Shown: positions 28,481 through 63,555 of the stretch, one piece after another | Layout: each line of letters starts with the position of its first letter | How positions within the stretch are numbered: the first letter of the stretch is position 1 | Assembly (NCBI GenBank): GCA_008632985.1 | Contig: QPGO01000128.1 | Location: 124,001-188,000 of the forward strand | Reading direction: 5' to 3' | DNA length: 64,000 nucleotides | Origin: Psammoneis japonica | Lineage: Eukaryota | Translations under genes and position numbers: made by a program | The notes under the pieces: generated by a model | The model's database searches: none | What the model was told of the DNA's origin: nothing | Seen by the model: the letters and a program-made list of their open reading frames with translations, nothing else

Positions 28481-28579
28481 AGTTGTAAAGTGGACAGCAT
28501 TGCCGTTTTCAGCTCTGCAGCTGTCGCCAAACGGACAGTGCAGCACATAGAGAGCAGAGAGCAGAGAAGAATTGCGAAC

Positions 28580-28900
28580 CATCCCTGCTCATTTTTCACG
28601 AGCTCTGGTTTGCACACGAACCACATGCTGGTTCCTGTGCATTTACGTGCATTTTACACCAGTCGCATCGTAGAGGGGTGTTGTTCGCCGGCCCTGACGA
28701 ACTCTTTCTCAGACACAAAATGCTTTTCACGACGTTCCGGCACATGACTGCCGGCTCGGTGGACACTGTTTCGAGTGCGTTTTCACGTAGAGCCTGCTGC
28801 AGATGTAGGCATTCAGATTTAATTCGGTACAAATCTACGCAGCATTTTGCGTAGGGTGCACACGAACCACCAGGTGGTTCGTGTGCATAAGCAGGGTTAA
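28580..28900. mobile_element. possible piggyBac-like terminus with palindromic subterminal repeats
   Basis: Perfect 14 bp-stem hairpin tgcacacgaaccac-cag-gtggttcgtgtgca (28857-28887), degenerate copy at 28611-28641, ending ...AGGG TTAA. Confidence 0.45.
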
Positions 28901-38160: not shown

Positions 38161-39572
38161 ATGCCCACTCATGTCCTTATTCGAGTTCCTCCACCGCCGC
38201 AAAGCGAAACTGATACGCCGCGTGCTCGTCGTCCTCGGCTAATCCACAAGAACGATCGTGATGATGCTTTTCAGCATGAGAACCAGCAGATCTCAGAAGA
38301 TGGGGCGGCAGCGGCTGCACAACCCCGATCTCCCATTACCAAGACACCCATTGCAGGCGTGGTTGGATTTCGCTATTCGGTGCGTCATACGAGCAGCAAT
38401 CGATCGTTGCAGCAGCACGTGAGTCGTGATGATATTCGGGGTTCACCACGATTGCAGGGATACCTCTTCATGTTGGTGGCAAGTATTGTCATGCTTGTCT
38501 CGGCCGTCCGCTTTTATATCGATGGTGATGATAAAGATAGTGTTCAAGTCGTACGACGAGAACGTGGGTTAGAAGAAGACGATGAAAACAACGACAATTT
38601 ATTTACTCATACATTTGGTAAGACGATTCCTGGAGACAGAATCGATTCGTGGAAAGACAGTAATTTATTTTTGTGATGCTGGTAGCACTTACTCTTTGGT
38701 GTTTTTTATTATTCCTGCAAGGCTCTCGTGTACTTACATGGAAGTTAGATGGAGCCGTAGTCGTGTCGGCTGCAGCCGTGGGTATCTCAGTCTTTGTCTT
38801 GGTAGTTCACTTTGACTCGGTCTTGCTTCCACAATTCTGGAAAATTGTCTTTCGCGATGGCAGTTACTGGGAACTGGCCCTATTGATTGGATTGCTACTC
38901 TTTTGGATGGGCGCCCTGCACATTTGTACCAGTGCCTTTTCCGTCGGTGAGGTTGCTCCAAACGTCTACTTTACTACATGGATTGCCTTTGCCAGTGCGT
39001 CTGTCAATATTGGTATGTGGAGGAGGGGTGCCGACTTGCCGCTGCTGATCGACATGGTTCGAAACGACAAGCGTGAAACTGTCTATGGGTGGTGTACTGT
39101 CCTGGTCTTTAGTTTGGTGACGGCGTGTTCCATTCTAGAACTCTACGCGAATCGGGATGAATTGGAAATCTTGCTGGAAGGGGTCGTTCAGCAAGTACCG
39201 CAACGCGAATGGAACAAGGCATTGGGAACATCCTTTTCCGCCGTGGGTGTGTCGCTCTTGAATGCTGTTTGCGTGCATTATCTTTCTGACAAGCCCCTGA
39301 GAATTCGTCTTTGTCGAGGCTGGATACTGAACTTGGATTGGAGACAAGTGGAAGGCTTTTGTGTCGTATCCGTTCTGGGCTTGTTTTCGTGGTTTATCTA
39401 TGAGTACACTGGCGTCAATAGCGCTCTCAGTGGTCCATCCAATCCATACTTTGGTTCGTGGGGCGTTTGGTTTTCGTCAGTTCTGACCTTTGGAACGTGG
39501 ATGCGTGAAAACAAACATATTGCGTTTATTCTCCGCAATTCTGAGGATGACACGACAGAAACGGAGAGCTAA
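38161..39572 (+). CDS. multi-pass membrane protein, paralogue B; intron 38618-38721
   Basis: Spliced frame is intact; multiple hydrophobic segments; homologous to 36230-37791. Confidence 0.85.
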
Positions 39573-39843
39573 TAGAGTATTGATCGTATGAGCCTCTACT
39601 TGTTGGCGGGGTGTAAGTATCGACAAGTGCTATCTAGAATGAGTCTATCTGCATCAAAGGCTCTTTCCAAATGCATTGCCTTGAGCTAGAGTACCACCTG
39701 TTCCTGGTGTTGGATAGAGGAGCTATTGAACTACTGCTGATACGGAAGCGTTGAAAATCGGTCCGTTTCATGTATGAGTAGGACGAACAAAGAGTTTGTA
39801 ACGGTGATATCACCAATGGCTAACTTATATCGATAAACCTACA

Positions 39844-41140
39844 TTATTTTCCTCCCTCACCCTTTAGCATGCGCTGTGCCACGGCCGGGGTTAAATACAG
39901 AAGCTTTGAATCGGGAGAAAACATCATTGCCCACATGTGATTGGGCTCTAACGAGGGAACTAATTCAGCTTGAGGCTTATTGCCATCCTCATTGAGATGA
40001 GCCTCGGCGTCTTCGTCTTCACCTTTATGCAACAGGAAACCAGCCATGCCCGCCACAAGCGTGGCTGCATCTGAAATGTTGCTCCAAGCCAAGCTGACTT
40101 TCATCGGGACTTGGTTCCAAACACTCAGCTGCTTCTTGACATAGTCTGACAAACCACTAAAATCGAAACCATTTTCCAAATCCTCTGCCAGAATCTTCTG
40201 CCTGCCCGTCAGGAAAGGGATCAACCACCCGTTGCAGGCCTTTGCTTCCATTGGCTTGCCCGGAAAGCTGCCTCCACCACCCACACATTTTGCACCGGTG
40301 GTGTCCATGAGGATGTTGATCCAGAACTTTGCCACCGCGGGATCATCAGGATTCTTCCTGGCATTCGCCAGATTTGCAAAGACATCCGAGACAGTTTTCC
40401 AAAAATTCGGTCCAAGGCCTGCTTCGGTTTGTATGGGGTTCAAGATCTGGCGGACTCACTCCAGTTTGGTTGACAGACTCTCCCAATCCGCAACACTTCC
40501 CGACATTTCTAGCCCACGCAGACCACAACCACAGCAACGCATCTCGTAGGTGAAGAATTCCTGCAGACTTCCCATCAAGTTAATCTGAGATGCAATCTTG
40601 TGCTCAGCACCAGACGTGCCAAAGTCATTCTGCATTTCTTTTGCAAACTCGGGCATTTTTATCTTGTTCCCAATTTCATGGGCAAATGCTTCAAACAAAA
40701 AGTCGCAGTCTGCATCGCACATGATGTGGCAAGGGAGGTTGATGACAGCAAAATTTGTTGTTGGCTTTTCCAGAATCAATGGGGTGCATCTTGTTGGGAA
40801 TGAGAAGATTTGCCAACCGCTCTGATGGCAGCTTTTGCGTGGGGGTGTCTTTTTCCAAAGCTGCTGCCAAAGATGGCTTCAATCACACATCAAGCTTCAA
40901 ATCAACCAGCACATCACAGTTTCCTTTTTTCTTTGCAATCCTGCGGCTTGCTGCTGTGGAGGACAACTCAACTCAACACAACGATTGCCAGTTGGCACTG
41001 GTGCCCTTTGCGGACTTTGGCCCCCATTGGACCCGACCGGCTGGGGTGCAGAACTCCTTGAAGAAAAGTTCCAGACCGGCATCTAAGAAACAAAAACAGA
41101 AGAAGGGTGTTTTGCGATCGTGCTCAACCCGAAGTTGAGG
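39844..41140 (-). pseudogene. DUF4419-like protein gene, partly eroded
   Basis: QINLMGSLQEFFTYEMRCCGCGLRGLEMSGSVADWESLSTKL motif; in-frame TGA at 40456; 5' half reads PCHIMCDADCDF, consistent with Tyr->Cys. Confidence 0.65.
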
Positions 41141-42129
41141 AGCAACACCGTCAGTTGTCCATTTTGTCAAATTGCGACAGGTCCCTGGTGCAGATTGCCA
41201 CAGTGTTGCCGATGGGTTCCAGTCCCAGCTGCCGAATCAAAAAATTTGCGACATCGCAAAATTTGCGACAAATTCCGAATCCCCGCACAATCATCGTGCG
41301 GCGAGTCGAGAAACAACCCTTGTCACCCTCCAAGATCATCTTTGCGACGCGGCCAACATCCTCTGGTGCAATTCAAGGTGCAGGCGTTCTTTCTACTTCG
41401 ATTAAGAAAAGGCACGATGCACGAGAAATGACAAAAAATCCTTATTTTCAAAGGAAATTGCCTTCTCGTGACAGCAACTCATGCCGACGCATCGCAAGAT
41501 TTCAACAAAAAATGACCTTTTTGGATGATTGCACCGCCTTTCCTCACAAACAAAACGTCGTGTGGCTCTTCATAATGATGACAATCTGATTGGTTTGTTA
41601 TTTCATGTCACTTGCAGACCTTCGGTTGTCGAAACAGTGGCATTTGCTCATTTGAAGCGAAAAATGAAGCACTCAGAGACCTCGCACGTGCTTTCATCGT
41701 GAAAAAATTCGAGCCATTTGTTTTTATGAATTAATTTGCGATTCGCAAATTTTGCGTTTCAGCAGCCAGGTGGGACTTTTTGTGACATTTGCCCCGTAGA
41801 ATTCTGCGTGCGAGCTCTGCAGTTCGTACTGTGGTCAATGAACACACTCATCTTCGACACAAAATGAACGGCCAAGTTTGCAGTGCATGTGTCTCTGTTC
41901 GTACTCGCAGTTTTGGACAATGCGCCTGCCCTGCGCCATTCTTAAGACACTCGAGAATGGCGCAGAAGAAAAAAACATTAAAAGTTGTTGAATGGATCAC
42001 CTGACAATTGCACTGTAAAATGATGCAAAATTTCGCCAAAATCACGTAGAAATGTGCGTGCGCGACATGCGACGTGATTCAAAAAACTGTCAATGTCACA
42101 GTTCAGTGGCACCATGCGAGGTCCCACCT

Positions 42130-45100
42130 AGACCTGGAACACGTCCGCCGGTGAAGCCGTCGGTTTTCCAGACATGTCAAGTGGGTCCCTGGTGCAGCTG
42201 ATGAAATGGAGAGTTGCCAATCTGCCACGATTGTCAGGAGTCAGAATGCTCCTGTGCTTGTGCCTCAACCTCCTGTTCCTGAGAAATGCAACGACGTTTG
42301 GAGGGAGGTCTTACATCGTCATTGCAATTGTTTGTCGGATCAAATTCCTGAATCCTGGGTTGACTGTTGACCCATCTGCGCAGAGCCGCTCGTTCGTCCT
42401 GGAGTTGCACACCGACCCCAAGTTTGCGGGACAGCCGTTCTCGGGCTGCCACAATGTTTGCCAGCCAAGAGCGTTTGAAAGAGGTGGACTGAGAGAGCAG
42501 GGAGACAACGTGACCGCAGAAATGACAGGCAAATTCCCCTGGGAGTCCCTCTCAGCCTCGCTGAAAATGGCGGCGAATCCATGAGTCTAGCTTGTCTCTG
42601 GCTGGCTGGCTTGCTAATTTGAGGATGAGCGGCAGCATTTCTGTGTTCCCACAACCGTTGCGTTGTTCCAACAAGTTGGTGGACCCATCTTCTGACCCAT
42701 TTCGAACCCAATTTTCTAGAGCCTCGGAGCCGAAAATGTTCCTGTTGTAAAAGAGCCCACTCCTTTGCCACACAGCCTTCCAGAAGTCTGTCCCAGCCAA
42801 TGATGCACTGTGACTCAACTGCCTGATGAAGGATTGGGCTAGCGCGAGGGTCGAGGCGGATGTTGATGTGTTGATGACTGCGCCAGGCGGTGAGATGTTC
42901 CTGGATGGTGCTCGCCAGGCCAAAAGCCGCATCGTTGTGATCCACCCAGCGGACATGTTTGCGCAAGAGCGACCTCAACTTGTCCGCAGCCTCTGAGCAG
43001 GTGACAACGTGCGCAGTGTCTTCGTTGTCAGCATCACACCGGGGGCATCGCAAATGATCCTGAACCTTCCAGCGTTTCAGCCATTTGCCCACTCCACACA
43101 TTCCTGCCACGTGTTTGGCCATCCACCGTCATTTGCCGATGCCAAGATTCTTGGCGACTGTCTCGATGACGTCCCAATCGATCCTGCGGAAGCCCTCATT
43201 CGCAAAGCATCGTTTTTGTTCGATCCAGCATTTTGCCAGCCGTGTGCCGTGAACATGATGATGCAGCCGCTCACCAAGCTTTGTCGAGATCTTGTGTCCT
43301 CCAATGAAAACACCCCACATTTCATCTTCGATGTCAAACTGTCGTGGAAGCCTTTCCTGAGGGTCCAGTTGAGCTTCATGTTGCCATCGTGCTTTAGCCA
43401 GGTTGTCCATCTCAACATTCAATCTTGCCCATCTGTCGAGTCTTCTGCATCGTAGAGTGTCTTGATGTCCTTTGACCCACCGGAATTTCCACCGCAGTGG
43501 GCTCTTGGCAATTTTTTCCTTGATGGCGCTTAAAATGTCAAAGTCGTTGGACCGGGCAGTGATGGGAAGAGTGGGGTCCGACGATTTCCGTGGGGCTTGT
43601 TTGCCATCACAGGCGATTTCAATTGCTCCTTGTTGAACATTGTGATGCAGACAGATGTCTTCAACCGTGCAGACAATGCTGTGGAGACCTGCTGTCTCCG
43701 CTTGGCAGGAATTGGCATCACCAGGGTGACCTGGCAAAATGTTGGCACCCGTCACTGGGTGAGTTTCTCGTTCCCCTCGGACAGTGAATGCCGATGTTGC
43801 AAGATTGTCTTTGGCTGACCCATCACTGACCGCAATGGCTGCGCCTGACTCGGTGGCATTGGCAACATGCAGTCCATCATCATCGACAGTGACTTTGTCG
43901 TTTGCCCACTGTCGGGCCGGAGGTCGTTGACGGAGTCGCTGAAGAAGATTGATCGGACCTGGAGCTTCCTGTCTGGGTCTCGTGCTGGTGGACCCCGAGT
44001 GACAAATTCCCCATCTGTCCTTGCCTTTGCAGCATGCGCGAGTGCGTTGAATGTCGTTGGGCGGTTCGGTCAGTCCAGACGGAACAAACCGGCAATGATG
44101 ATTCCTCGTTTGCCTGCTGCTCGACAACCTGAATGAGTGCCACAGGTTGTTCTGACCCCATTGACACAGACGCTGTTCCGACAGAGAATGGAGCCACTGC
44201 CAGTGGGAATCGTCAACTCCAGCATCGGGAAGCCAGTTCCCTGAGGATTGGTGTGATCGCCTTGCATGGACACTGGTTGCCCATGTAAAGCAGTGCCTCA
44301 GAGCAGTGCGCCACGTTGTCCAATCTGTGGCCTTCGGACATTGTTGCGGGGGCCATTTGCATTGTGGCCAAAAAAAGGTGTCCTTCTTTCCATTCCACAT
44401 GTCACAAAGAATTTCACACCCGTTGCCAGTTGAGATGTCAGCAAGTGTTGCGACATTCAGGAAGGCACGGCACCGATTGAGAGCCTGCAGCTTGGCCCCC
44501 CTGAAGCCTTCATCTGCAAATCTTTCCATGAGAAACGCGTCATTCTCACGTGAGAGAGTCAGCGACGGTGCATCCTCGTTGTTGCTGATGTTGTGGCTGG
44601 ACAGACATGTCTGCAGATGCTTGACCCATGACTTGGCAGCCAGGCATCCAATTGTTTGTGACATGAGCTCGCAAGGAAGGAGCTTCCGATTCCGATTTCC
44701 AGCTTGTGTTTCTCCACGAGTGCTCGGAGAAGTTGTCCCGTGATCGTGTCTGCTTTTCCGTGTTTGACAAATGCCTCGACGTGTTTCCTGTACATGGTGG
44801 AGGCAATCCATTCGAATCCGAGGCCTTGCAGTCGGATCGGAACCGCGCACAACAGCACGGGGAAAGGAGCTGCACAGACCCAATCTCGGAAGGCCTTGTT
44901 TGAGAAGTGGTGCTTCGACACATCTGCATTCTTTCGACGACAGAGTGAGGGCAAGGAGAGGGCAGTTGAGTGCCTTGCAGACTCTTTGAGTCAGGGCAAG
45001 CCACGCATCAGCCTTAGAAAGATGACCCGATCGAGCCCGATCCGCCCAACCTTCAGCGTGTTTCCGGAGTTCTTCCACCGCAGTCCTGCAGTTTCCATCG

Positions 45101-45360
45101 GGGGCCAACCACACTCCTGGAGTTTTCTTGGTGATGGAAGGCGAAAGTCGTTCAATCAGGTGTCTTGTTCCCTCGTCATCCTCTGCGCACATCTGTGGGT
45201 CATCCTGATCATCGGGGTTGCTCTCCTTGTGAACGCACTCCCATCTGCCATTGGTCCATTTGAACTCTGTTAAATGCCACCAGCATTTGTCCGGGCGGGT
45301 GTCGCCTCCCGCAACTCTCATGAAAAGAGTCCGTGTGACTCTACGCCAGACTGGCACTCA
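42130..45360 (-). mobile_element. non-LTR retrotransposon (LINE) ORF2 3' part with RNase H and Cys/His knuckle
   Basis: GGDTRPDKCWWHL.EFKW.NGRW, AIAVSDGSAK, IEIACDG, FRWVKGHQD, LNVEMDNLAK, CPRCDADNEDTAHVVTC; no Tyr in the 742 aa ORF. Confidence 0.88.
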
Positions 45361-45364
45361 CAGA

Positions 45365-48300
45365 CGACTTTGGTCCTGTGGCGCCAAATGGATGTGTGAT
45401 GTCCGACGCATGATTGCGACCAGTGCATTGGACATGGGAGGATGAGTCCCAGAAGAGGAGGTGACAGGTTCAACACCCGACATCTCTTCCCTCTCTCTCT
45501 TTGATTGGCATCAACCTGTGCATTGCCACATGCCTGTGGCAGAGTTCCCACACGAAAAGAAGTGCATTGGCCGTTGGCTCGGCGCAGCTGACAACTGCAC
45601 TGACAACATGGCATTCATCATTTTGCCCGAATCAGGCAAACCCATCATTCGGAAGGATGTGTGGGCCACACCGGAGGATGACCTTAAAACTCCGGCGATC
45701 CAGACGGATCTTGCATCGGTCGATCAAGCTTTGATCAAACGGCTCAGCATCCCGGAAAAGGGTGCCAGTGCTGACTTCCCTGAACTCCCTGACGACTTCA
45801 TGGACGAATGGGACGATGCCGTTGAACCCGTGGAACCCGACGCTTCCAAACTGGAAGCTGATGAGCACACCCCGGAAGGGCTAGATGAATGTCTCACAGC
45901 TCAAGTCATGTTGCCACGAGGAGGCGAGCTGACTCATGCCAGGGTCATTGCACGCAAGTGAGACAGCGACGGGGTGCCTGTTGGCACTGGGAACGACAAC
46001 CCTGTCCTAGACTCGAGGACATGCGATGTGGAATTCCCTGACGGATCCACCGATTCCTTTGCTGCCAACGTAATTGCAGAGAACCTGTTCACTCAGATCG
46101 ACTCTGAAGGGAATGCCTGCCAGATCATGAAGGAAATGGTTGATCACCAACGTGATGCCCATGCCGCAATGGCCAATGATGGGCACACAACGACTGAGAC
46201 TGGCAGGCGTGCTCCCAGGAGGACGACCGCAGGCTGGGACCTGCAAGTCAAATGGAAGGATGGGGCTGCATCCTGGGTTCCTCTCAAGGATTTGAAGGAG
46301 TCCAATCCAGTCAAGATTGCTGAGTGCGCTGCAGCGAACAAAGCAGTTGGTGAACCAGCCTTTGACTGGTGGGTCCGAGACGTCTTGCGTCGCAGGTCAA
46401 GGATCCTGAAGAAAGTCAAGTCACGTTGCTGGAAACGTGCGCACAAGTTCGGAATTGAACTCCCAAAATCTGTTGAGGAAGCCATGGAGATAGACAACAG
46501 AACGGGGACCGACTTCTGGTTCAAGGCCATTGAGAAGGAAATGCGTGACGTCATGCCTGCGTTCGAATTCCGCGATGACGACACTGTGCCGGTCGGGTGC
46601 AAACACATTGATTGTCATGTGATCTTTGACATCAAGAGCACCCTCCAACGTAAAGCGAGGTTCGTGGCCGGAGGCCATCAAACCGATCCACCCAAGGAAT
46701 CGACACATTCCAGCGTGGTGTCGCGTGACAGCGTTAGGATGGCATTCACTGCAGCAGCTCTGAATGACCTGGAGGTCCTGAGTGCTGACGTTCAGAATGC
46801 CTGCTTGAACGCACACACCAAGGAAAAGTGTTGCACCACTGCTGGCCTGGAATTTGGGAAGCAGAACGAGGGAAGGCCGGTGATCATTGTCCGTGCCTTG
46901 TGTGGTCTCAAGTCTTCAGGTGCAAGATTTAGGGAACATGTGGCAGCCACTCTGCGGGACGCTGGGTTCGAGTCTTGCAAGGCTGACCCGGATGTCTGGA
47001 TGTGGGCTGTGGTTAAGCCGGATGGCTTCAAGTGCTGGGAACATGCACTTGTCTGTGTGGACGACTTGTTGTGCGTCTCCCATGAACCTCAGAAGGTCAT
47101 GGATTGTGTGAGCTCCAGGTGCACGCTCAAGGACGGAAGTGTCTGCGAACCGGAAGAGCACTTGGGCGCCCAGATCAGAAAGTGCCAGCTGTCTGACTCG
47201 GATGGCAAGACACGCTGGGCCATGTCCTCTGACCTTCATGTCAAAAAGGGCATCAGCTGATGTTGAATTGGAGCTTAAGAAAACTGACAGGCATCTTCCG
47301 ACGAAGGCGTTGACGCCCTTGAGCTCGGGACATGGGCCTGAACTGGACGGTTCACCTGAGTTGAATGCCAAAACGGCTAACTGCTGTCAAGGCCTTGTTG
47401 GTGTGCTGCGGTGGGCAGTTGAACTGGGGCGAGTGGACATTTTTGTCGCTGTCTCGCTCATGTCCTCCTGCTTGGTGGCACCACGAGTTGGACACCTGGA
47501 CGAGGTGCTCCATGTCTTTGCATGCTTGAAGGCTCGCTCCAAGTCTGCGCCAGTGTTCGACGACACTGAGCCCGTCTTTGACGGGAGTCACTTTGCCAAG
47601 TGTGATTGGGAAGAATGTTGCCCTGGCATGGCTGAACCAATGCCGCCGAATGTGCCGGAGGCACGCGGGAACAGCGTGACCACCACTTGCTTTGTCGATG
47701 CTGATCACGCCGGATGCCGTGTGACGCGCAGGTCCCACACTGGGATCCTGACATTTGTCCAATGAGCGCCCATCTTGCATTGCTCTAAGCGGCAGAATGC
47801 CGCAGAGTCCTCTGCTTTTGGGTCGGAGTTCGTGGCCATGAAGACTGCAGTGGAGCAAATCGAAGCCTTGCGTTGCAAGCTTCGGATGCTCGGAATCCCC
47901 CCATGGATGGGGCCACTGACGTTTTCTGCGACAATGAAGCTGTCTTCAAGAACTCAACTAAACCGGAGTCCACTTTGAAGAAGAAGCATGATGCAATTGC
48001 CTGTCACAGGACTCGTGAGGCACAAGCCGCTGGAACAGTGCGCATTGCTTGGGAAGACGGATGCACGAATCTGGCGGACGTGCCAACCAAGTTGTTGCCT
48101 GGACCGAAGCTCCGGGAAATCACAAGTCATGTCCTGTGGTGAGTCCCAAAAGGGGACAAACCAAACGGGTTTGCCGCGCAGGTGCGGCTTTTCCCACCCC
48201 CAAAACACAACTGCCACCCTGGAATGGGGCAGCATCAGGTTGCATTTGTCTGTCGATCTGACCCAAGCGGAGCCAGTGTCAGTTCGAGGGGACTGAATAA

Positions 48301-48400
48301 ATGCTGATGTGCTGTCACGAATGTGGGCAGTTTATGCACTGTTGGCAATTGGTCCACTGTCACTTGATCAGTGGCCCCAGCAGCGCAACATCTCACAATT
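45365..48400 (+). mobile_element. Ty1/copia (CoDi-like) LTR retrotransposon, 5'-truncated: integrase tail, RT, RNase H, PPT and start of 3' LTR
   Basis: TGSTPDIS, RKARFVAGGH, SSVVSRDSVR, DVQNACLNA, ALCGLKSSGA, VCVDDLL (YVDD), FVDADHAG..TRRSHTG, FCDNEAV, NLAD..TK; gaggggac then TG at 48294. Confidence 0.93.
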
Positions 48401-48404
48401 CTAG

Positions 48405-49430
48405 AACCTGTTGATGCTGTTCAACACTCTGTCTTGTCTTGCACCCAATTCTTGGCTGTCATGGCAGCATTTGTTCAGATCCATGGTCTCATGCTCACAT
48501 TGCAGTCAGACGGGTGACGCAGATGCGACAGGTGTTCTCTTGCGCACTGCGTCGCTCCTGGTGGAAATTCATGCGATCCATCCAGAACAGCATTGGAGTG
48601 GGGGCCAACTCCAAGAAATTGCACATCATCAATGAGAGGCTCCTGCACAAGAGCGGTGTGATGCGTTTGGTGAAGTCTTGACTTGCAGTCTTGAAGCGCT
48701 GGAGCTTCCATTTCCTCTTTTTCAGCAATCTCTTGATCGGAGCCGTCTGCTTGTTTCTTGAGGAGGCGTGTGAGTGGGGATCGGAGAGGTTTGCCGGAGA
48801 TCCAATTTGCTCTGTGATTCTGCTCCCTAGACTCTTCGCAGTTGATGAGCACTCGCAGTTGTGTTTCAGCATCAGAGTTGTTGGCTCTGGCCAGCTGATC
48901 TGCTCTTTTCTCCAGAAACTTGCGTCGGTGGTCGGGAGCGTCTTTGGCGATTGCTCGACATTCTTCACAGCGTTGTGATGGATCTGCCTCTAACTGGACA
49001 AGAGTGAGGTTGTGCACTTCAAAGTCTCTTGATTTTCTTTCCAGACGGCACATTTTCCGAGAACTGATCGTGAGGCGTTTCCATCGGCGAATTAAAGCGT
49101 GGTGCAATTCGATGCGTTTGGACGCTCGTTTGAGCTTGGGAGACCAGGACTTGCCTCCCATGCGAAGCTTTCTGCATTTCTTGTCGGCAAGCCACATGCC
49201 TTGAACTCGGAGTTTGTCAATTCTCTCCCATTCATCGGTGAGTTTGGGTTGCGGGGGACAAGTGGCCTGCTTTTCATTTCGAATGCTCCTGCTGGGAAGA
49301 TTGTGTGCTGGTGCATGGTCTTTGCGGATTTTGTTGAATCTGCTCACTGTGACTGGATCATCAAGTTTGAGTCTCCGAGTGGGATGCCTTTCGAGTTCCG
49401 GAGGAAGAGTGCCAAAAGCGGTCTGATGCT
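48405..49430 (-). mobile_element. LINE ORF2 upstream part (endonuclease-RT linker)
   Basis: RRLKLDDP, ADKKCRKLRMGGKSWSPKL, same strand as 42130-45360. Confidence 0.75.
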
Positions 49431-52400
49431 GTGGAGGACAACATTGCATGAGGGGGGGGTTCCTGCAAAGGGAGTGATTCAAGGACATTCTCATTTGACT
49501 CTTGCCGCTGCCTGCAAAGTTGCGCAACATCTTCTAAATGCAACAACTGAGTTGCACAATGATGCAACTCAATCAGTTGCAAGTTGATGGTCAGAGAGAG
49601 CAAAGCAAGTCTTGCCTGATGGAGCTGAGGTGATCAAGTCTCGTTTTGACAGGTGACAAGCTGCAGAGCAAGCTGGAGAAAGTCAATGCCGTGCACAAAG
49701 AGATGTTCCATCTGTCTGACAGTGTCGACTCTGATCAGTGAAAGTTCAGTCATGTTTTCCTGGATGATGACAATGTTCGATCATGAGGTTCTACACAAAG
49801 CAAAGGAATGTCTCATTTCCTGTCACTCTCCACCCCCTTGAATGGAGTGAGTGAATGTGGACAGCATTCAGGGAAAGAATGTGAGCAGGAACAAGCCAAA
49901 GGGCACATTCAATCATCACCCAAATTGTTTTCTTGGTGCCTTGAGTTTTTGCAAGGATGTCTCTGTGAGTTGACTGTCTGTGGGGCCCACACCAGGACAT
50001 GATGCTGGTGACCCACACAAGAGGAAAATGCTGTGACCCCCTCTCGTCAGCTGACATGTTGGCAACACTGCTCAATGTGTCATGTGCACTTGGTCTGCTG
50101 ATCATTGGTGCTCATCTGAACAGTGACCTTGTTGTCCAGAAAGAGAATGGCAGGAGCAGCAGCAAGACATTGGGGGGCTCAGTTGAGCACTTCTCTTGGC
50201 CAACCCCAACAAGGTGCAAGCGAAGTCTTGCAAGCATGGCAACATGCAAAAGTGAGCAACTGCCACAGCACTGGCACAAGCACCCATCCACTCAGACTCT
50301 GCAGAAGATGTTGTGAAAAGGGTGGAGAGAGATGGGCTGGCGCGTCAAATGTTGCCCCATTGAAGAAAATCACAGTTCCGACAGTTTTGATCTCCTGGCA
50401 CATCAGGGCAGCCCTCCTGCCAGCTCTCATCTCAGTGAACACAATGGACTCCAAATGACTGATGTTTCAAGCTTTGCAAATTGTCAACACTGGGCTCTTA
50501 GATGAAAAAACCAGATCTAAATTTTGCAGTGCCATCACTCCTTTGCCAGCTGTGCTGGTGCCGGCTGACCCACACCCCCAGCACACAGCAGTCAATTGAG
50601 GCAGGAGCGCTTGCATGGGATCAGCTGGAATGGGCATTGCCAGAAGGTGTGACACCCCGCCAAGACAACAATTGAAAAGGAATGATTCACACGAGGGATT
50701 TGTTGCATGCTTGTTGATGACAGCCACAGAAGGCACACCACAACTGTGGTGGACAATTGCACTCGGATGTGTTTTTAGAACAGTCCACAAAAGGAGCCTT
50801 GAAGGTGAGACAAAAGCAGGTCATCGGAGAAAACATTCATGGCATGTAGAAACAACACTGAGTCTTGCATGGAAAAGCTGATGAGAGCAGCAAACTGAAG
50901 ACAATCAAATGGCACCACAGGATGACTTGCGCTCTTGCTGAAAAGGGCCGCAACAGAAGCAGCACATTCGCTGCAAAGAGTGAAGTGCTTGATTGCACAG
51001 CAGAGAAAAGAAGAGAGGTTGAAGACCAATTGGCAAGGAGACAAAAGAAGCAGTCCAGTGAAGTGACACACAGACAGTCAGTGGCAACACGCAGAAACAA
51101 CACCAGATCTTGCATGGAAAAACCAATGGGAGCAGCAAATGGACGACAATCAAGTGGCGCTTGCACCACAAAGAGTGAAGGACTTGATTGCACAGCAAGG
51201 AAAAGAAGCAGCATTGAAGACCGATTTGAAAGGACAAACGTGGGCCAGCGAAGTGACGTGCAGATTGTCAGCAGCATCTGCAGATCCGTGCAGAATTTGC
51301 ACTGGAACCTGTGTGGAAAATTTTGCAGACAACAGAAAATTGTGAGAAACAACAACCAGCATGCAAGCCAACAGGTCACAACACTCATTTTGTTTTCCAC
51401 TGATGAGCTTTGCTCATCATGCTGCAACAAGGATGCACCATTGGCAAACGTGGACAGAATGGGCTTGTTGGAGCCAAATCAACACCATCTGAGAATGGCA
51501 ACATCAGCATGAGAACACGCACAGAAACACATGTGGGAGGTTGCCAGTGGGTGCTCATGCAAAAGAGCACTGGGCTCTTAGATGGATCCCAGCAAAGCTC
51601 AGCTGTCAGATCCTGGTGGCTCTGAAGACAGCCAAAGAGATGAACAAGGGCATCAAAGTCATCAATGCCAAGGCCAGCGACAGAGCCTTGGCAAGCTTGC
51701 AAGTGTCCCAGAGGATGTTTGCATGGGTGTCACAGGCAAGGCAGATGATTGAACAGAGGACAGGCCAAAAATTCAAGCCAGGGTGCTTGGCAGCAACTGC
51801 CTTGGCATCCACCTCTGACTTGAGATGACTTCTTGCCTTGGAGCACACAACGGACAGGAGCTGGTGCATCTTGGAATGCTGGGCTGTCCTGGCAGCCCAG
51901 TGCTGTGGCAAGTCATGAGCAAAGAGCAACAATGTTCAAGGGGGAAGGAGCCATCCTTGTGTCAATGGATGTGCATCCTCTGAAAAAACCAAGTCACATG
52001 GTCGCTGAACATGGCGCTGGTGCATTTGGACTTGACGAGTTGATCAAACTCATCCTTTTCAACTTTCAACATGACAATTGCCAGAGCCAAAACTGATGAT
52101 GTCATTGGCACAGAAGATCAACTTGAAACACAAGCTGTCAAGGAATTGTTGAGCAAAGGGACAAGAAGGAGGGGGGCGCAGGTGCAGACATGCAATGTTC
52201 GGAACAAAAAAGGTGCGTGCCCATCACCAAAAATCAACATTGTTGTCATGTTGTTCATGCAATGCTGACATGAAACAACTTGTTTGCTGCAAAAGAAGGG
52301 GCCAAGAACAAGCTGCAGTTGAGGTCCAGAATGTGCCACACAACCAAAAAAACAAGGTTGGTGGGAAAGCCTTGATCATCCTTGAAGCAGAGCACAGTTG

Positions 52401-54130
52401 AAACTTTTGTTGCATTGAGAGCAGTGCTCAGCAGTGTTGGCAGGGACCCAACAATCAGTGCTGTTCTCAAGATCATCATGTTGCACATTGTGAGAGGACA
52501 TGTCAGAGTCAACCATCCAGCTGCAAATGTTGCTGAGGTTGGTGTTGCTTGACAAGGGATGTTGCAGGCATGCAATCAAAGAACAGTCAAAAGGACATTT
52601 TCTTGAATTCAGAGAGAGAGAGAGAGAGAGCAAAGCAGGCCTTGCTTGATGGAGAGCTGAGGTGATCACAAATCTCATGCCAAAGAAGGGCAAGACAAGC
52701 CAGAGCAAGTGGAAGAAAGTCACACAAAGAGATTTTCCAGACATTGTGAAAGGATCAAAAGCCAGCCTCTGATCCAAAACAAAGTGGTTGACAGAGTTGT
52801 GTTTGAGAGAGCAAGGAGCCTCTCCAAGAACTGTGTCAACCCCAATCAGCAAAAGTTCAGGCAGCCATGGCTTTTTGGATGAGGGTGACAATGTCTGGAC
52901 ATGATGAGGTTCTGCACAAAGCATGGGAATGGTCATTCCCTGTCACAAGTGCACTGCAGAGTTTGCAAGACACACATCCAGTTGTGGGGCATTGCAGATG
53001 TGTGGACATGATGCTTCATGCTGTGCAAGTGCAGTTTGTGGGCACTGTTGCTGCGGGAGCTGCTCCAGTGCATGCTGTTGCTCAGCTCATTTTTTGAAGT
53101 GTCTGATTTTTGGCTTCACCATCATTGTCATCTCATGTGCATTTTGGCCATTGCAGAGAATTTTTAATCTTGAAAACAATCACAAAGAGTGTCTTTTGGG
53201 TTGGCAGCATCAAACAAACATGCACTCAGTCAGAAGTGCCACAGAAACAGAAAAAAGTGCCAATCTGTCTCCTGTGGAATGATGTTCACAACACCCACCT
53301 GCCAAGGAACAACAAGCACAAGGGTTGGAAATGTGCTCTGAATTGGAGCAATTGCAGCCAGATGCACTGCTGTTTGCTGGCATGATGTGCAGCATTTGCC
53401 ACAGACTCTGGGTTCTGATTCTGCAACTCTCACTCCAGGTTTTGTCTGACAGAAAAACTCTACAAAATGCTGCACTGCTGCAGTGCTCACACAACTTGTG
53501 CACAGAGAAACACCCAAGAACATGCCAGTTGTGTTTTCATGACACCCTTGACTTTAACCATTGTCAAATGGAAACACTCCTCATTTGCAAAGCATTGCGC
53601 TGGCATCTTGCAAATGTGCATTGACAGTTGTTGCCATGCTCAAGCAACTCCCACAAGGCAAAGCTGCTCTCAAGTGTCATCACACCATGTGCAGCAAGCA
53701 GGCATGCAAGGGTCATTGCAAGTGGTCATGATCAACATGACTAATTTGCCAATCTTTGGATGCATCATCAAAACAATCTGGGGTTCTGAACTTCTGTGTT
53801 TTTTTTTGTTGCCAGAAGCACCAGGAGCGGCATCACCTTTGTTCTTCTTGTGCAAGCAGCCTGCTTCTGACAATGCCTGAATGGCCTCCACCACTGCGTG
53901 CCATCCTTTTCCCTCAAGGTCAGGAAACATTTGTCCCAAATTCTTTGAGGAAGACATCCTTCAAACTCCTCTGCCTCACAGCAAGTGCACTGGAGCTCTT
54001 CACTCACCGGAGTGACAGCAAAATGGCAATTGCCTCTGCAGTCATCTGCTTGGAGGGCACCTGAATTTGATGCACCTCAGAGGCAGAGATGAGATGTTGG
54101 ACTTGTGGGCAGAGTCCTGGGATGTTTGTG
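49430..54130. repeat. heavily eroded repeat mosaic
   Basis: 49594-49830 resembles 52624-52945; 49434-49560 resembles 55966-56090; 50863-51040 resembles 51109-51235; both TA and CG depleted. Confidence 0.7.
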
Positions 54131-54137
54131 TGCACCA

Positions 54138-55965
54138 TCTTTCTGCGACAAGCTGCTGAGAATTCGTCTTTGTTGGTGTTGGATGCTGAACTTGGATTAA
54201 AGACAAGTGGAGGGCTTCTGTGTCACATCCATTTTGGGTTTGTTCTCAAGGTTTGTCTGTGAGCACACTGAGTGGTCCATCCAATCCATGCTTTGGTTTG
54301 TGGGGCATTTGGTTTTCGTCAATTCTGACTTTTGGAACGTGGGTGCATGAAAACAAGCATGTTGCATTTGTTCTCTGCTGTCGGAAGATGACACAACAGA
54401 AATGGAGAGCTGGCAGAGTGTTGATTGCATGAGCCTCTGCTTCTTGGCGGAGTGCAAGCATTGACAAGTGCTGTCTAGAATGAGTCCATCTGCATCAAAG
54501 GCTCTTTCCGAATGCATTGCCTTGGGCCAGAACATGCTGAAAACAACTTGTTCCCAGTGTTTGACAGAGAAGCTGTTGAGCAAGCACTGTGGTTGCTGCA
54601 GAAGCATTGGAAATGGGTGCGCACAATGTACAAGCAGGAAGAACAAAGGGAGTGCAATGCTGACATCATGAGTGGCTAACTTGTGTCGCTAAACCTGAGT
54701 CATTTTCCTTCCTCACCCTTGAGCATGCACTGTGCCATGGCCGGTGTTAACTGCAGAACCTTTGAGGTTGGGAGAAAACATCATTGCCCACATGTGATTG
54801 GGCTCTGACAAAGGAACCACTTCAGCTTGAGGTGACAACTTGTTGCCTTCCTCAATGAGATGAGTGCCGGCATCTTCGGATTCACCTTCACGCAGCATGA
54901 AACCAGCCATGCCCGCAACAAGCGTGGGCGCATCTGAAACGCTGCACCAAGGCAAGCTGACTTTCATTGTGACTTGGCTCCAACCACTCAGCTGCTCTTT
55001 TACATCCTTTGAACCACCAATTTCCATGGGCTCACCCGGCATGCTGCCTCCACCACCCACCACACATGTTGTGCCCCGTGGTGTCCATGAGGATGTTGAT
55101 CCAGAACTTTGCCACCGCAGGATCGTTGGGATTCTTCCTGGTGTTGGCCAGATTTGCAAAGACATCCAAGACGGTTTTCCAAAAATTCGGTCCAAGGCGC
55201 ATTTCGGTTTGCATGGGCTTCAAGATCTGGTGGACTTGCTCAAGTTTGGTTGACAGACTCTCCCAATCCGCAACATTTCCTGACACTCTGGCCCACGCAG
55301 ACCACACCCAGCAATGCATCTTGCAGGTGAAGAATTCCTGCAGACTTCCCATCAAATTAATCTGAGATGCAATCTTGTGCTCAGCGCCAGACATGCCAAA
55401 GTTGTTCTGCATTTCTTTTGCAAACTCGGGCACTTTGATCTTTTTCCCAATTTCACAGGCAAATGCTTCGAACAAAAAGTCGCAGTCCGCATCGTGTGTG
55501 GTGCAGCAAGGGAGATGATGGCAATGTTTTCTTTGCCTTGATGAGAAACAAACAAGTCTCTCACCTTTTGCGATGATGCACGGTTTGGCTTGGTGGCCTC
55601 ATTGACAGCCTTCGCAGTGCAACAGGCAATGGGAAACCGCCAGTCTTTGGGAGATGTGCACAGGATCTAATGGTTTTTCCAAGCTTCAAAGATGCACCCA
55701 AAGAGACCAAAATGCCAGGACAGCAAACTTTGTCATTGGACTTTCCAAAAAACCAACTTCGACGTTGGAAGTTGGACTTTCCAGAACCAACAGCGCACGT
55801 CTTGTCGGGAATGAGAAGATTTGCCAACCGTTCTGATGGCAGCTTTAGTGCAGAGGTGCTTTTTCAAAGCCTGCTGCCAAAGATGGCTTCAATCAGGCAT
55901 CAAGCTTCAAATCAACCAGGATGTCATAGTTGCCTTTTTCTTGGCAATCTTGGGCTTGCTGTTGA
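54138..55965. pseudogene. eroded segmental copy of 39281-40965 (3' end of membrane paralogue B plus the DUF4419-like gene)
   Basis: Colinear alignment: gagaattcgtctttgt, tggtccatccaatccat, gtgtccatgaggatgttgatccagaactttgccaccgc, ctgctgccaaagatggcttcaatca. Confidence 0.95.
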
Positions 55966-56829
55966 GGAGGACAACATTGTGAGAGGGGGGTTTCCTGCAA
56001 AGCAAGTGATTCAAGAGCATTTTTTCAACTCTTGTCGCCACTTCTCTCCAACTGCAATGGATTTTTTTTAGAAAAGCATGGAGTTGCACAAACCTCATGC
56101 GAGTTCAGTCATGCTGTGACTCATTCAGTCGGGAGCACAGGTGTGATGTGCGGAGCTCATCATCCGAGATGCAAATGCCTTCCACAGTCAATCACGACAC
56201 TGATCAATCAATCGCGGATGTGCATTTTGGGCATCACCACACATCGTCAAGGCATGCACCAGGGTGCCAAATGCATCATGGTTGACAAAACTACGAAGAG
56301 CAGGACTTGAGACGATGCCAGACAGTGGGTTGTTGAGAGACAACTGGCCAATGCCATTGTCGCGCATTCCATGTGGTTCGCACGCGCGGCGAGGCATGAA
56401 CTCGAGTGGTTTTTTCATGAAGGTCTCACATTTGGATGTGGTCATGTCTTGTTTTGTGCACTTTCTGCAAAGCCATGCAGAAAAACAAGGGAGTTTAGAG
56501 CCGGGTTTCAGAAAAAAAGATTTGATTTTGTGGGTCATGTTTTCGTCATTTCCTCAACACCCATCGCCTCAGCCAATGGGCCACACCCAAGCTCTTTTCC
56601 TTGTTGCACTGAGTTTGCAATTTACGTTCATGTCGACGTTTCAGTTGACAAAAATCAGACAAACAAGAGCAAATGCAAGGAGATGCGGTGGTGCTTTTCA
56701 CCTCTCAATGTGGCAAGCATTTGAGATTTTGAATGATGCAGTGTCTGAAGCATGTTTTGAACCAGCTGCAAATGACGCACATCTGACTTGCAACAGGCCA
56801 GCTTTCAAATTGTCTTCTTCCACAGAGTG

Positions 56830-59283
56830 CTGTCACGGCAGATGAGATCGCATGAGACCTGCAGAACCAATTTTGGCAACCTCGTCAGAGTCACGTTCAA
56901 GTGCATCAGAGGGAAAGCAAGAAGAACACAAAGAGCAAGACAATCACCACAATGAAATTTTAGATTCAATTGTTCAACACTTCTGCAAAGACAAACCACC
57001 ATCTGTGGAGGAGAAAGTGGAGGCAACAGTCTGAATGGCAACACCAAACATTCTCTAGATTCTCTCAGTGACGTTCCCAGGGCAAACGTCCAGCTGCCAC
57101 CGGGATGGGGCAAAACGCCGCTTGCCTTGAAATCAATCAAAACTTTTGCATTGGATGGCTCAGGTCCAAGAAGAGCAAGACTCCAGTCAGTCATTCATGT
57201 GACACCAACTCTGAAACTTGTGGATCAAGTTCTGGGTGACTTGGGTCAACTCGGGGCATTTGATCATGTGCCTCACTTTCGATCAATTGTGGCAAGTCAG
57301 ACCAATCAAACCAAAACATGCACAACCTCTTCTGACATGTGAGATCATTGCGACTTTTCTGAGCTCTGACAAAAATGCACTGTCGTTTGTTTGCTGCACT
57401 TGCAAATCTTCACCCAAGGTTGGAGAGGCACCAAGGCAGCTGGACGCCAGCATGGGTTTGCCTGTTTTTGATGAAGCACAAGAGATGGAAGGGATTGGCA
57501 AATCATCTGGCTGTGGTCTCCATGACTCAAATCTTCCAGTTGATTGTTGCCTGTTTGCAACAGCTGCACCTTGTGGGTGCACCGACAATCCACAACAACC
57601 CAGCATTGTCGGTGACAAACTTTGCAAGGATGGTTCTCGAATGCTCATTTCCAAGAGAAATTCAGAGCCCAAGAAGGATGCTGGTGTCCTCAGCTTAACC
57701 ACAAGACTCTGTTTGGACCATGCCTTGCAAAATGGATGCTGGGTGATGCTGTGAGTCAAAATGTCACCACTCCGATTGCGCTGTGTGTTTTGGATGACAA
57801 AGAAATCACTCAATTTCTCTGCAACAATCACACGGCTGGTTCAGAAATTCATTCAAAGGACTTCATGCTTCCACTCACCATCCAAGCAGCATTTCACAAA
57901 CTCAATGTGAGCCGCGCTGTTTCCTTTCATTTGACAAACTGCTGCGCATGGGCTTTTGTGCATGATGCAGAGCATCGGTTCTCAAGATGGACAATGGACA
58001 ACATCGCCGCATTTGCTGTCTGTGGCAGCTCTGACATGTCTCCTTCCAAGTGGGAAGAAATCTTGTCGAGAGCCAAAAGAGCTGCCAAATTGATTGTGGC
58101 CAATTGCAGAGCTCTGGTGACTGGTGTGGACGAGGTGGATTGGGATTTGGCGGTGATGGCCGATCCCGTCCAAAGTGCCATTGACGCTCGCCAAATGATT
58201 GGATGTGTTGGCCGGAAAGCTCCTGGCAAACAACATGGCTGTGTGCTTGCACCAGTGCCTGCAAATGGTGATGAGGGGCTCATGCAAGACAAAGGTGGCC
58301 ATGAATCTTTTGTGTTTGCATTTGATGCAATAGTCAGATTGGACATTGAATTGCGGGAGGATGTCGTGTTTGTGATTGATGAGAGTGCCAGGCTTGGAAG
58401 GCCTTTGCGTGATGCAGAGTTGCCCTCTTGGGCACTTGAATCATTCTCATGCTTCCAGACTCAATGTTCCTTGAAACAATGAATGACATCATGAATTGGG
58501 CAATCACAAAACACAAGAATTGTGAAAGTGACTGGGATCAAATGCGTGAATTGCTTTTGGTTTATAAAAAAGAGAAGGAAAAAGCAAAGTTGCACAAAAA
58601 AGCACAAAGAGGATGGAAAGAACCTTGGAGTGTGGTCAAGTGGGCAACGTGTTTTGAGGAATGCTGGGAAGCTTGACAGCACTCTTGAGGAACTTCTCAA
58701 AGGCATTGGCATTCTTTGGGATGTTCCTTTTGAACAATGGGAAAAAATGTTTCGACTCCTCGTGCAACACAAGAAACACGAGAAACATTGCAATGCACCA
58801 AGAAGGCACATGAAGAGGATGGGAAGAACCTTGGAGGATGGTTGCAAATGCAATGAGCGGCAAGAAAATCCAGCAAGCTCAAACATTTCTGTGAGAAACA
58901 GCCAAAATTTTTTGGCATTGTTTGGGGTGTTGCTGCTGAATTCGGGGAAGCAATGTTTTGACTTCCCGTCCAGTGCAAGAAATGTGAAAGGGGTTGCAAC
59001 GTTCCACGTGTTCACGTTGAGAATGGGAAGAAACTTGGACAATGGTTGGGTGAACAGCGCTCAATGAAAAAAGGTGGGAAAGCTCAACCAGGTGCTCGAA
59101 AAGCAACTCTGGGATGTGGGCATTGTTTGGAAGCCTCTTTCGCAACAATGGGAGACAATGTTTTCGCTTCTTGTTGAACTCAAGAAACGGGAAACAACCG
59201 AAGCAATGAAATACAATCACTACGAAAACGTCATTGAGAAGGATTTGCTCCTTCTGAAGGCTTGGTGTGTTGCCTTTCAGTAG
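56830..59283 (+). pseudogene. SF2 DExH helicase with C-terminal helicase-associated (HA) repeats, pseudogenised
   Basis: LPPGWGKT (Walker A, ~57094), VIHVTPTLKLVDQ, VFDEAQ..LFATAAP, TGVDEVDWD..QMIGCVGRKAPGK; repeated WEKMF.LLV..K..HCN.P..G..LG.W units; frameshifts. Confidence 0.8.
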
Positions 59284-60015: not shown

Positions 60016-61070
60016 CTTTCAATAATATATACCGGTAGAATTGTAATGGCAGAGAAGGAACAGCAATGAATGAATGACGGTTGCGTTGTTAGGTGATACC
60101 TGGTATGTTTTATGTTTACAGTATGTCATGGTCATGGTCCGAAGGCGACAGTTACAACGCCGCAACAACCGTAGCAAGTGCTTTAGAAAACCTCGTACCT
60201 CGTACTCTCTCTCTCTCTCAACCTCCGTCGTCTGTTATCACCCGTGTGCCAGGGCTCACAATGGAGTCCCTTGTATCCGCACTCTCTAGCAGCAGGAACT
60301 AGACTACCGTGAAGCACCGAGAGACTCAATACATCCTTGACAGCACCGGTTGGTTGGTCTTCTATTGCCATTTGACTGCACTGTGCCATGCGGGCCTGTG
60401 GAAAATGTTGCAAAACAAAAGAAGAAGCAGCTGCGTGTTGCCCAACGACATCTCAGGAGCTGCGAAACTGTTGAACCTGTCCCCACAACCAAAGAAAATG
60501 GAGGAGCTGCAAACCAGCTACATTCATCTCCACAAGACTCCATGGAACAACGTGCATCCTTCATTTGCCAAATGAAAAAGAAAAGAGCAAGGGTGTCTTC
60601 GTTGAAACAACCGTGAAGGGTCTTGTGTCTTTTTCCACAGCACGAGAACAACCAATGCAAGACACACCCTGTTTGGTGCTCCACCAGTCCCTTTTGAAAT
60701 GGTGAGCCAGGATCGTGGAATGCTGATGCGAGAAAGCCAGACGACAAACAAGAGCCACCAGAGGCGATTCCCCATTGGTCGGCAAATCTTGGCGGATGCA
60801 AAGGCCTGCAGACAATTGACAAGGACAGTGCAGAGGATGACAGTTCACCAGATTCACAAAATGGTGTTCTGGTGGAATGAGCATGCCAACGGCACAAAGT
60901 GTTTGAGAAGAAAGAAACAGAATCTGTGGAGCAGTCCAAAGCAGCAGAAAGGCTTGGCGCCCTCATGTTTGTTTGGTGTTGACGATTGCCGTGCTGTTGC
61001 CGTTCGTGCCGAACTGGCATGTGCCAAAGTGAGAAAGTCAGACTGCCAAGAGAAGTGAACATTGGTGTGT

Positions 61071-63058: not shown

Positions 63059-63555
63059 CAAAGAGAAAGGTTCACGATTCCTCCCTTTGGCTTGTTGGAA
63101 GTCGTGTCAGTTGGTGCAGTGGGGCAATCGTTTGCGATGCCAAAGTTGGGTCTCGGAGTGCGTCTCGGCGGTGCTTCACGGAGAGTGTGAGAGAGTTACG
63201 ATGAACGACGAACCACGACCATGTCACAGCGGGATGATGCGGATAATGGATGCGAACGCGAATCCAGAATCGGATCGAACTCACAATGCGCAGGGAGCGC
63301 AAATTGTGACGGCGAGAAGAAGGAAACGAGCCTTCTCAAAGTTATTTTATACGTAGTTGAATATATAATATACCGGCGTGATAAAGTGTCGATTTCGTTG
63401 CTTTATCATTGCAACCTGGTATTCCCTAACCAATAAAAAAAATCGCAACAGACTCAAAACCATCATCATCTTTAGATCGGTGTTGTTGCTGTTGTTATTG
63501 CTGTCGTCGTCGCCATACATACCTTACACTAACACTGCTCCACCCTCACACAATC

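Follow-up and report, generated by a model that had tools for sequence, protein, structure and literature searches.

What process could have stripped the dinucleotide TpA from transposable elements (TEs) of the diatom Psammoneis japonica and left the genes beside them with theirs? The question is raised by a stretch of 64,000 nucleotides (contig QPGO01000128.1, positions 124,001 to 188,000; hereafter the window), in which a preliminary description had singled out positions 40550-59200 as a domain of A-to-G hypermutation at TpA. We give a probability of about 0.72 to the reading that TpA was changed to TpG or CpA by hypermutation of the DNA itself, in place, within bounded domains that contain TEs, the genes being spared.

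To segment the 64-kb window we used a two-state hidden Markov model (HMM) on TA counts. The model returned seven TpA-depleted segments, amounting to 35.9 of the 64 kb, and eight TA-normal segments, with densities of 1.3-7.9 TA/kb and 25.7-54.3 TA/kb, respectively. The observed/expected ratio (o/e) of TpA was 0.056 over the 35.9 kb of depleted DNA and 0.576 in the normal segments, and the neighboring genes had ordinary TpA, as first described. The interval 40550-59200 (18,651 bp) contained 83 TpA (o/e 0.071) against 757 expected from the TpA rate of the normal segments (Poisson log10 P ~-214), and 200 mononucleotide shuffles of it gave a mean of 1169 and a minimum of 1099 TpA. The o/e of TG+CA was 1.61 in this interval and 1.21 in the normal segments. 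The near absence of TpA and the abundance of TG and CA were thus stronger than had been claimed. However, what had been described as a single ~18-kb domain is in fact one of seven sharp-edged segments, and the interval, which is depleted overall, is broken by a TA-normal island of 350 bp. The segments are as follows.

601-4700: TpA-depleted segment (HMM, composition), 3.7 TA/kb, CpG o/e 0.21
10951-13100: TpA-depleted segment (HMM), 1.4 TA/kb
16801-18450: TpA-depleted segment (HMM), within an element with terminal inverted repeats (TIRs)
22301-28600: TpA-depleted segment (HMM, composition), 1.3 TA/kb, CpG o/e 0.19
40051-41700: TpA-depleted continuation of a duplicated host segment (HMM, self-alignment)
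41701-42050: TA-normal island (HMM), 9 TA in 350 bp, 25.7 TA/kb
42051-59200: TpA-depleted segment (HMM)
60401-63300: TpA-depleted segment (HMM), 3.8 TA/kb

Counted per 500 bp along the window, TpA dropped from 15-30 to 0-4 in the blocks, with abrupt edges, and TG+CA rose from ~70-80 to 100-130 in the TpA-poor blocks. Relative to the normal segments, the frequency of TpA in depleted DNA was 0.09x, that of CA 1.36x and that of TG 1.41x. Stop trinucleotides on both strands shifted in the same way, with TGA 1651, TAA 109 and TAG 87 in the depleted blocks and TGA 1124, TAA 504 and TAG 460 in normal DNA. No half-depleted segment was present among the HMM segments of the window, and the depletion state looks switch-like. 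The long interspersed nuclear element (LINE), the Copia element and the TIR element of the window all lie inside depleted segments; host genes that matched Pfam are located outside them. The TG and CA products were about equal in five of six depleted blocks.

The direction of the change was read first from a duplicated host segment.

39266-40050: TA-normal copy of the duplicated host segment, comprising the 3' end of gene 38664-39572 and spacer
54123-55975: depleted duplicate, 1.8 kb, of host segment 39266-40967 (self-BLAST)

The TA-normal copy (39266-40142) and the depleted copy (54123-55005) form a paralogue pair, in which the normal copy was taken as reference. Among its 41 TpA, 19 had become TG and 16 CA in the depleted copy, five were kept and one was changed otherwise; transitions made up 34 of 35 changes at TpA. 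The 36 CpG of the normal copy gave CA at 12 sites and TG at 11, and 11 were kept. TG and CA of the normal copy were 84% conserved in the depleted copy and none became TA. The claimed direction, TA to TG and TA to CA, is borne out by 35 of the 41 sites in this pair and, independently, by the tyrosine columns of two TE proteins in the large depleted domain.

42330-45423, minus strand: LINE-type retroelement, C-terminal two thirds, with RNase H-like region and zf-RVT (tblastn, Pfam)
43129-45357: open frame of this LINE, 742 codons, zero tyrosine (translation)
45317-48139, plus strand: Copia-type (RVT_2) fragment without tyrosine, interrupting the LINE (Pfam)
48484-49434, minus strand: N-terminal portion of a LINE of this family (tblastn)

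By these matches, the core of the large depleted domain is a nest of TEs with a Copia inside a LINE. The Copia match to RVT_2 (E 8e-9) passes the Pfam cut-off, and the element is called a fragment because self-BLAST of the window found no long terminal repeat (LTR) pair for it. With the open reading frame (ORF) of the hypermutated LINE as query, a word-indexed protein search gave no match and an exhaustive HMMER search 5054 homologues, of which the best 150 were used to score the Tyr columns. All five columns with at least 50% Tyr were Cys (4) or His (1) in the window, and where Tyr made up 25% or more of a column (19 columns) the window read C6, H5, F4, R2, E1, A1 and Y0. Control columns of the LINE were kept (W 21/24, F 11/14, C 6/6). 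The Copia ORF had 2495 homologues at E<=1e-10, and all 120 listed carry PF07727. Scored against these 120 (47-68% identity), its 17 conserved-Tyr columns read C10, H4, F2, W1 and Y0, with control columns again kept (F 11/11, H 6/6, W 9/10, C 2/2).

The only metagenome locus related to a TE protein query in a single-protein search (L001) had a TpA o/e of 0.79. At its 19 Tyr the window had C9, H4, F3 and three other residues; read against this locus, the catalytic YVDD motif of Copia is CVDD. The viral-contig scans contained no relatives of either TE protein. Altogether no Tyr was found in 2081 residues of five TE-block ORFs, and three host ORFs had 7, 6 and 18.

The same event also struck either strand, as had been proposed. 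On the known coding strands of LINE and Copia, Tyr was changed to Cys 16 times and to His 9 times; because Tyr to Cys is A to G on the sense strand and Tyr to His is the antisense event, both strands were hit. The ratio of TG to CA in the paralogue pair was 19:16.

We compared the surviving TpA with normal segments to define the sequence context. Survival was 0.025 for TAT, 0.042 for TAC, 0.164 for TAA and 0.144 for TAG. The surviving sites (n=124) were enriched for Y-TA-R (Y, pyrimidine; R, purine), with over-representation of TTAA 4.9-fold, CTAA/TTAG 4.05-fold and CTAG 2.9-fold. ATAT was not seen among the survivors and occurred 81 times in normal DNA, and ATAC/GTAT occurred once and 181 times, respectively. 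A model with ten site classes, in which the two strands mutate independently of each other and the 3' neighbor of the A determines its rate, fitted these counts (deviance 4.66, 6 df, p = 0.59) with relative rates of 5.4 for T, 4.2 for C, 1.4 for G and 1 for A, and was far better than a single rate (likelihood ratio 141.8, 3 df, p = 1.6e-30). By this fit the preferred target is 5'-TAY-3'. The excess of Tyr to Cys over Tyr to His follows from the same preference, as all Tyr codons read TAY on their sense strand.

The leading candidate for the chemistry is deamination of adenine to inosine by a TadA/ADAT2-like or other deaminase. It is favored because the changes are near-pure transitions, the strands behave independently and the T-A context is like the U33-A34 of TadA/ADAT. 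The natural substrate of TadA and ADAT2-ADAT3 is A34 after U33, a T-A context, and bacterial TadA reads U-A-C-G, which is similar to T-A-Y; we know of no pyrimidine preference at position 35 among eukaryotic ADAT2/3 substrates. The TadA/ADAT2-ADAT3 family, whose DNA-editing relatives include BjADAT2 and laboratory adenine base editors, may by analogy be linked to the signature. DNA editing by BjADAT2 is cited in a recent preprint (bioRxiv 10.64898/2026.01.13.699255, accessible text). We hold deamination tentatively, at odds that are at best even.

Alternatively, an enzyme of TET/JBP or other type might modify T in 5'-R-T-A-3' within silent chromatin, for example to 5-hydroxymethyluracil (5hmU) or 5-formyluracil (5fU), which would then mispair with G and turn T into C, seen as A to G on the opposite strand. 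TpA is self-complementary, and all the counts are equally compatible with R-T-A and with T-A-Y. In dinoflagellates 5hmU is concentrated at TpA and TpC, and 5-formyluracil does mispair with G. However, oxidized-thymine lesions are expected to add transversions, which the 34 transitions among 35 changes in the pair do not show. The Pfam scans of the window contained no T-modifying gene, and this is equally true of deaminases: as the preliminary description had noted, the window shows no causal gene, and the scans of it matched no deaminase, polymerase or base-modifying gene. We consider a thymine-directed origin unlikely.

Error-prone repair of DNA polymerase eta (Pol eta) type, recruited to heterochromatin, had been listed among the candidate mechanisms, and this polymerase does mutate A in WA motifs (W, A or T) to G. 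The paralogue comparison disfavored it. Over 39266-40000, with strands pooled, A changed to G at 34 of 80 sites after T, 9 of 111 after A, 4 of 100 after C and 6 of 98 after G, that is at a rate of 0.425 after T and 0.04-0.08 after the other bases. ApA is thus no hotspot (Fisher p = 4e-8 against TpA), the changes are near-pure transitions with symmetric strands, and TAT and TAC are nearly all removed. Pol eta is a very unlikely source of the signature.

The two retroelements would also fit A-to-I editing of their RNA by an ADAR- or ADAT-like enzyme, fixed by reverse transcription, so that new copies would be mutated on arrival. U is the favored 5' neighbor in ADAR hyper-editing and in ADAT-based mRNA editing of the fungal sexual stage, according to the accessible text of published work, and the same neighbor is preferred here. 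However, editing of RNA predicts A to G on the sense strand only, and Tyr to His made up 9 of the 25 Cys or His outcomes. ADAR and fungal A-to-I editing favor G or a purine 3' of A, in contrast to the 3' pyrimidine here. Editing of that kind acts on RNA, whereas DNA that is not a retroelement is equally depleted in the window: host duplicates with genes on both strands, spacer DNA and the TIR element.

16512-18481: inverted-repeat element of ~2 kb, with TIRs of 134 bp at 16512-16645 and 18351-18481, 85% identity (self-BLAST)

Depletion starts and stops close to the ends of this element, at distances between tens and a few hundred bp. A further edge, at ~40050, interrupts a duplicated host segment whose homology to 54123-55975 is contiguous over the full length. 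Left of it the copy at 39266 is TA-normal, and right of it both copies are depleted. Sites at which one copy had TG and the other CA numbered 16 where both copies are depleted and 3 where the first copy is normal, a pattern that is best read as the footprint of independent hits on shared ancestral dinucleotides, CpG ancestors possibly accounting for some of the sites. Because both strands, the TIR element and host duplicates were affected and because an edge lies within homology, the observations indicate that chromosomal DNA was mutated in place and not retroelement RNA, the editing of which we regard as highly improbable.

To check the base calls, we compared the window with Logan contigs of a sequencing run (X1). 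Contigs of ~370-610 bp at depth 30-40 matched five depleted stretches (44013-44403, 49233-49638, 49612-50079, 53006-53377 and 55973-56578) with 0 differences. Differences between the window and X1 contigs of related copies were nearly all transitions (126 A>G, 125 T>C, 159 C>T, 162 G>A), no transversion class exceeding 15. Among 40 of the 698 variant rows, the window had CA or TG where the contig had TA at 8, and 19 were CpG-related. The possibility that orthogonal reads would show TA at these sites, raised in the preliminary description as a test, was thus answered in part: the X1 contigs agree with the assembly in the depleted stretches, but they may come from the same sample. An assembly or base-calling artefact (modified bases can give systematic A/G miscalls on some platforms, and X1 may share the assembly's sample) or a native composition of the elements under selection against TpA is scarcely credible, since the X1 contigs agree, the 742-codon frame is open, and the loss of conserved and catalytic tyrosines together with the paralogue pair excludes native composition. 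GC-biased gene conversion was rejected as it has no TpA specificity, and UV damage by reasoning only, as it would be neither TpA-pure nor domain-bound.

Decay of 5-methylcytosine (5mC) at CpG had been set aside as unable to explain the loss of TpA. This stood, although decay of CpG to TG and CA is overlaid in the same blocks. The CpG o/e was 0.99 in normal segments, 0.70 in 42051-49500 (where the TpA o/e was 0.086) and 0.16-0.21 in 49501-54100, 22301-28600 and 601-4700. The two losses are separable because that of CpG varies widely among TpA-depleted segments.

49501-54100: an old stretch within the depleted domain, TpA o/e 0.036, CpG o/e 0.16, with short repeats at 50.8-51.3 kb

In 42051-49500, ~91% of TpA is gone and the 742-codon frame is still open. 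Saturation was therefore fast compared with ordinary decay, as CpG o/e is still 0.70 there. Across segments, TpA o/e dropped with CpG o/e, from 0.086 at 0.70 to 0.020 at 0.19, which suggests continued or recurrent removal of TpA rather than one burst.

Duplication as such did not mark DNA for mutation. Segment 39266-40050 is normal while its duplicate at 54123-54865 is depleted, so that only the copy in the TE domain was mutated. Both copies of a 2.6-kb tandem duplicate are TA-normal, and the depleted segment 10951-13100 sits between them.

7713-10313 and 13605-16201: glycosyltransferase-like gene pair, tandem duplicate, 71% identity, EryCIII-like_C domain

The normal paralogue copy and these unmutated, 71%-identical genes contradict a homology trigger. 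Because homology fails to predict which copy was mutated, targeting was probably by silent-chromatin state or small RNAs and not by copy homology.

Under the reading that we prefer, a process would convert A:T to G:C at the A of TpA on either strand, with preference for 5'-T-A-Y-3'. Its domains would take in the LINE, the Copia, the TIR element and embedded host-derived DNA, and adjoining genes would remain untouched. More than 90% saturation would be reached before CpG decay is far along, and removal of TpA appears to be ongoing over time. Destruction of Tyr codons, catalytic ones included, would disable the elements.

The preliminary description knew of no system with this signature. However, the same change of TpA to TpG and CpA has been reported in Bigelowiella natans (bioRxiv 10.64898/2026.01.13.699255, main text). 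In mutation-accumulation lines of this species, integrated regions of nucleocytoplasmic large DNA virus (NCLDV) and virophage origin mutated at ~6e-7 per site per generation, ~1000x background, and 210 of 211 single-nucleotide mutations in NCLDV regions and 20 of 20 in virophage regions were A to G or T to C, all at TpA. [quoted passage not shown] Diatoms or stramenopiles are not mentioned in that main text. We found no report of TpA hypermutation in diatoms in the literature, most subscription journals lying outside our coverage.

The window resembles the B. natans case, as far as its main text describes it, in that the changes are almost only A:T to G:C, at TpA, with both TpG and CpA as products, and in that foreign or mobile DNA is mutated and host genes are spared; here embedded host duplicates are also mutated. 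Unlike the rhizarian B. natans, the present host is a diatom, a stramenopile. The rate in B. natans was measured directly, the process being active in some lines only, and its viral region is partly depleted (Rho TpA 0.45), whereas the o/e in the window is 0.02-0.09. The B. natans targets are integrated viruses; those of the window are TEs, a TIR element and embedded host duplicates, whose edges could be placed to the nearest tens to few hundred bp. Nothing wider than the dinucleotide is given as context in the B. natans main text, and the TAY preference comes from the window.

Two better known processes share part of the signature. Repeat-induced point mutation (RIP) of ascomycetes changes C to T mainly at CpA, creates TpA and mutates both members of a duplicate. 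As in RIP, the changes here are dinucleotide-specific transitions at the DNA level on both strands, with missense and nonsense changes in transposons and sharply bounded blocks. Unlike in RIP, TpA is destroyed, CpA and TpG are gained, and only one duplicate copy is mutated. RIP had already been dismissed, and the dinucleotide frequencies given above and the edge inside homology agree with that. Deamination of 5mC at CpG yields the same products, TpG and CpA, and of the 36 CpG in the paralogue pair, 23 turned into one or other of them. It differs in that TpA is removed here and in that the loss of CpG is independent of the loss of TpA in degree.

The signature, its direction, strand symmetry, domain edges and sequence context are established observations. 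Several points weigh against the interpretation placed on them. Events directed at A in T-A-Y and at T in R-T-A look alike in sequence. The context fit takes host segments as proxy for the original composition of the TEs, and part of the surviving TA may be newly created. The product bias in the paralogue pair was as the model predicted (YTAY gave TG 11 and CA 5, RTAR gave CA 5 and TG 1, and YTAR was kept at 3 of 9), but the numbers are small. Block 10951-13100 had unequal products, with TG 177 and CA 240. The edge at ~40050 could instead come from recombination of mutated and unmutated copies, and run X1 may derive from the very sample that was assembled. Among 270 public TE homologues none appears hypermutated, so that a wide spread among diatoms would be conjecture; Cys or His filled 34 of 1894 cells at conserved-Tyr columns of public Copia homologues and 12 of 265 in those of LINE, and the public homologue richest in them (P0332), with 4 at 13 such columns, is not convincing. 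Finally, mutation accumulation in Phaeodactylum tricornutum showed GC-to-AT bias and no TpA hotspot (PMC6604790, accessible text).

As to block 10951-13100, its skewed TG and CA may stem from its original TAY/RTA make-up. Two X1 contigs of equal length covered LINE positions 44013-44403 at depths of 30 and 32, with 0 and 38 differences, respectively, and a genic contig had depth 50; the two could be haplotypes ~10% diverged, or one could be a paralogous copy. The island 41701-42050 coincides with an X1 bin (41669-42335) whose summed contig depth is ~38,900 against ~110 nearby, which makes it a short repeat of very high copy number. It may have inserted recently and so far escaped hypermutation, or it may be too short an element for targeting. 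Direct repeats of 87 bp beside the TIR element (16428-16514 and 18509-18595) are 100% identical with 4-5 TA each, and far exceed the usual length of a target-site duplication.

The remaining annotated features of the window are the following.

4936-6054: proteasome Rpt6 gene, 87-93% identity to diatom proteins, the named matches mostly pennate
39844-40878, minus strand: DUF4419 pseudogene copy, with an in-frame stop at the 40455/40456 ORF junction
55032-55598, minus strand: DUF4419 copy in the depleted duplicate
56956-59067, plus strand: degraded helicase gene, with weak DEAD/ResIII and Helicase_C matches and an HA domain

The TA-normal segments had Pfam matches to an AAA proteasome ATPase, glycosyltransferase-like proteins, an FG-GAP protein, a Laminin_G_3 protein, a glutathione S-transferase (GST) and a nucleotidyltransferase with a PolyA_pol domain. 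Part of the gene for the last falls in host segment 31934-33539, of which a degenerate duplicate lies in 22301-28600, in pieces 67-72% identical. The depletion of the large domain stops at ~59200, ~130 bp past the helicase gene. Two ORFs of the 601-4700 region that were scanned, 496-1215 (minus strand) and 3669-4259 (plus strand), had no Pfam match, the remaining depleted DNA had no family match in the Pfam scans of the window, and Rfam and tRNA scans of the 64 kb gave no match.

The DUF4419 frame at 39844-40878 has its 3' end in TA-normal DNA and the remainder in depleted DNA, and appears to be a host-type gene overrun by the domain edge. In a second run (X2, ~30 Mb of contigs), bins 39001-41668 and 54342-56342 were matched only in gene 38664-39572 with its spacer and in the DUF4419 segments; the match was exact up to 39794, and the DUF4419 segments matched at 90-95% likeness. 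DUF4419 appears to be a multi-copy family in the P. japonica genome.

The saturated footprint in this diatom is best filed as a new lineage for a hypermutation described once, in 2026. Targeted A:T-to-G:C hypermutation of mobile DNA is a defense logic that was unknown before that single preprint. The window adds constraints beyond the mutation-accumulation data: edges follow the ends of elements to a precision of tens to a few hundred bp, reverse transcription would not be required, no homology trigger is indicated, TAY is preferred and the strands appear independent. A tentative extension, which we find doubtful on balance, is that diatoms and chlorarachniophytes share an ancient dedicated defense enzyme, a natural DNA adenine deaminase or a base-modifying enzyme of equal specificity, guided to silenced chromatin of transposons and viruses, that would turn TAY into TGY on both strands of duplex DNA, a 'reverse RIP' across Stramenopila, Alveolata and Rhizaria.

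For the annotation of such genomes the consequences are practical. TE annotation fails, as a Pfam match at E<=0.01 was found in just 3 of the 20 TE-block ORFs and the curated cut-off was passed by one. TE ages based on divergence will be wrong, and gene predictions will wrongly include 'orphan' ORFs that are Tyr-free, rich in Cys and His and closed only by TGA stops. A natural A-to-G editor of duplex DNA, if true, would be of interest to genome engineers, and as diatoms include transformable, CRISPR-amenable species, candidate enzymes could be tested directly. Being present in a diatom, the process would not be peculiar to one chlorarachniophyte or to integrated viruses, and over half of this 64-kb window bears its mark.

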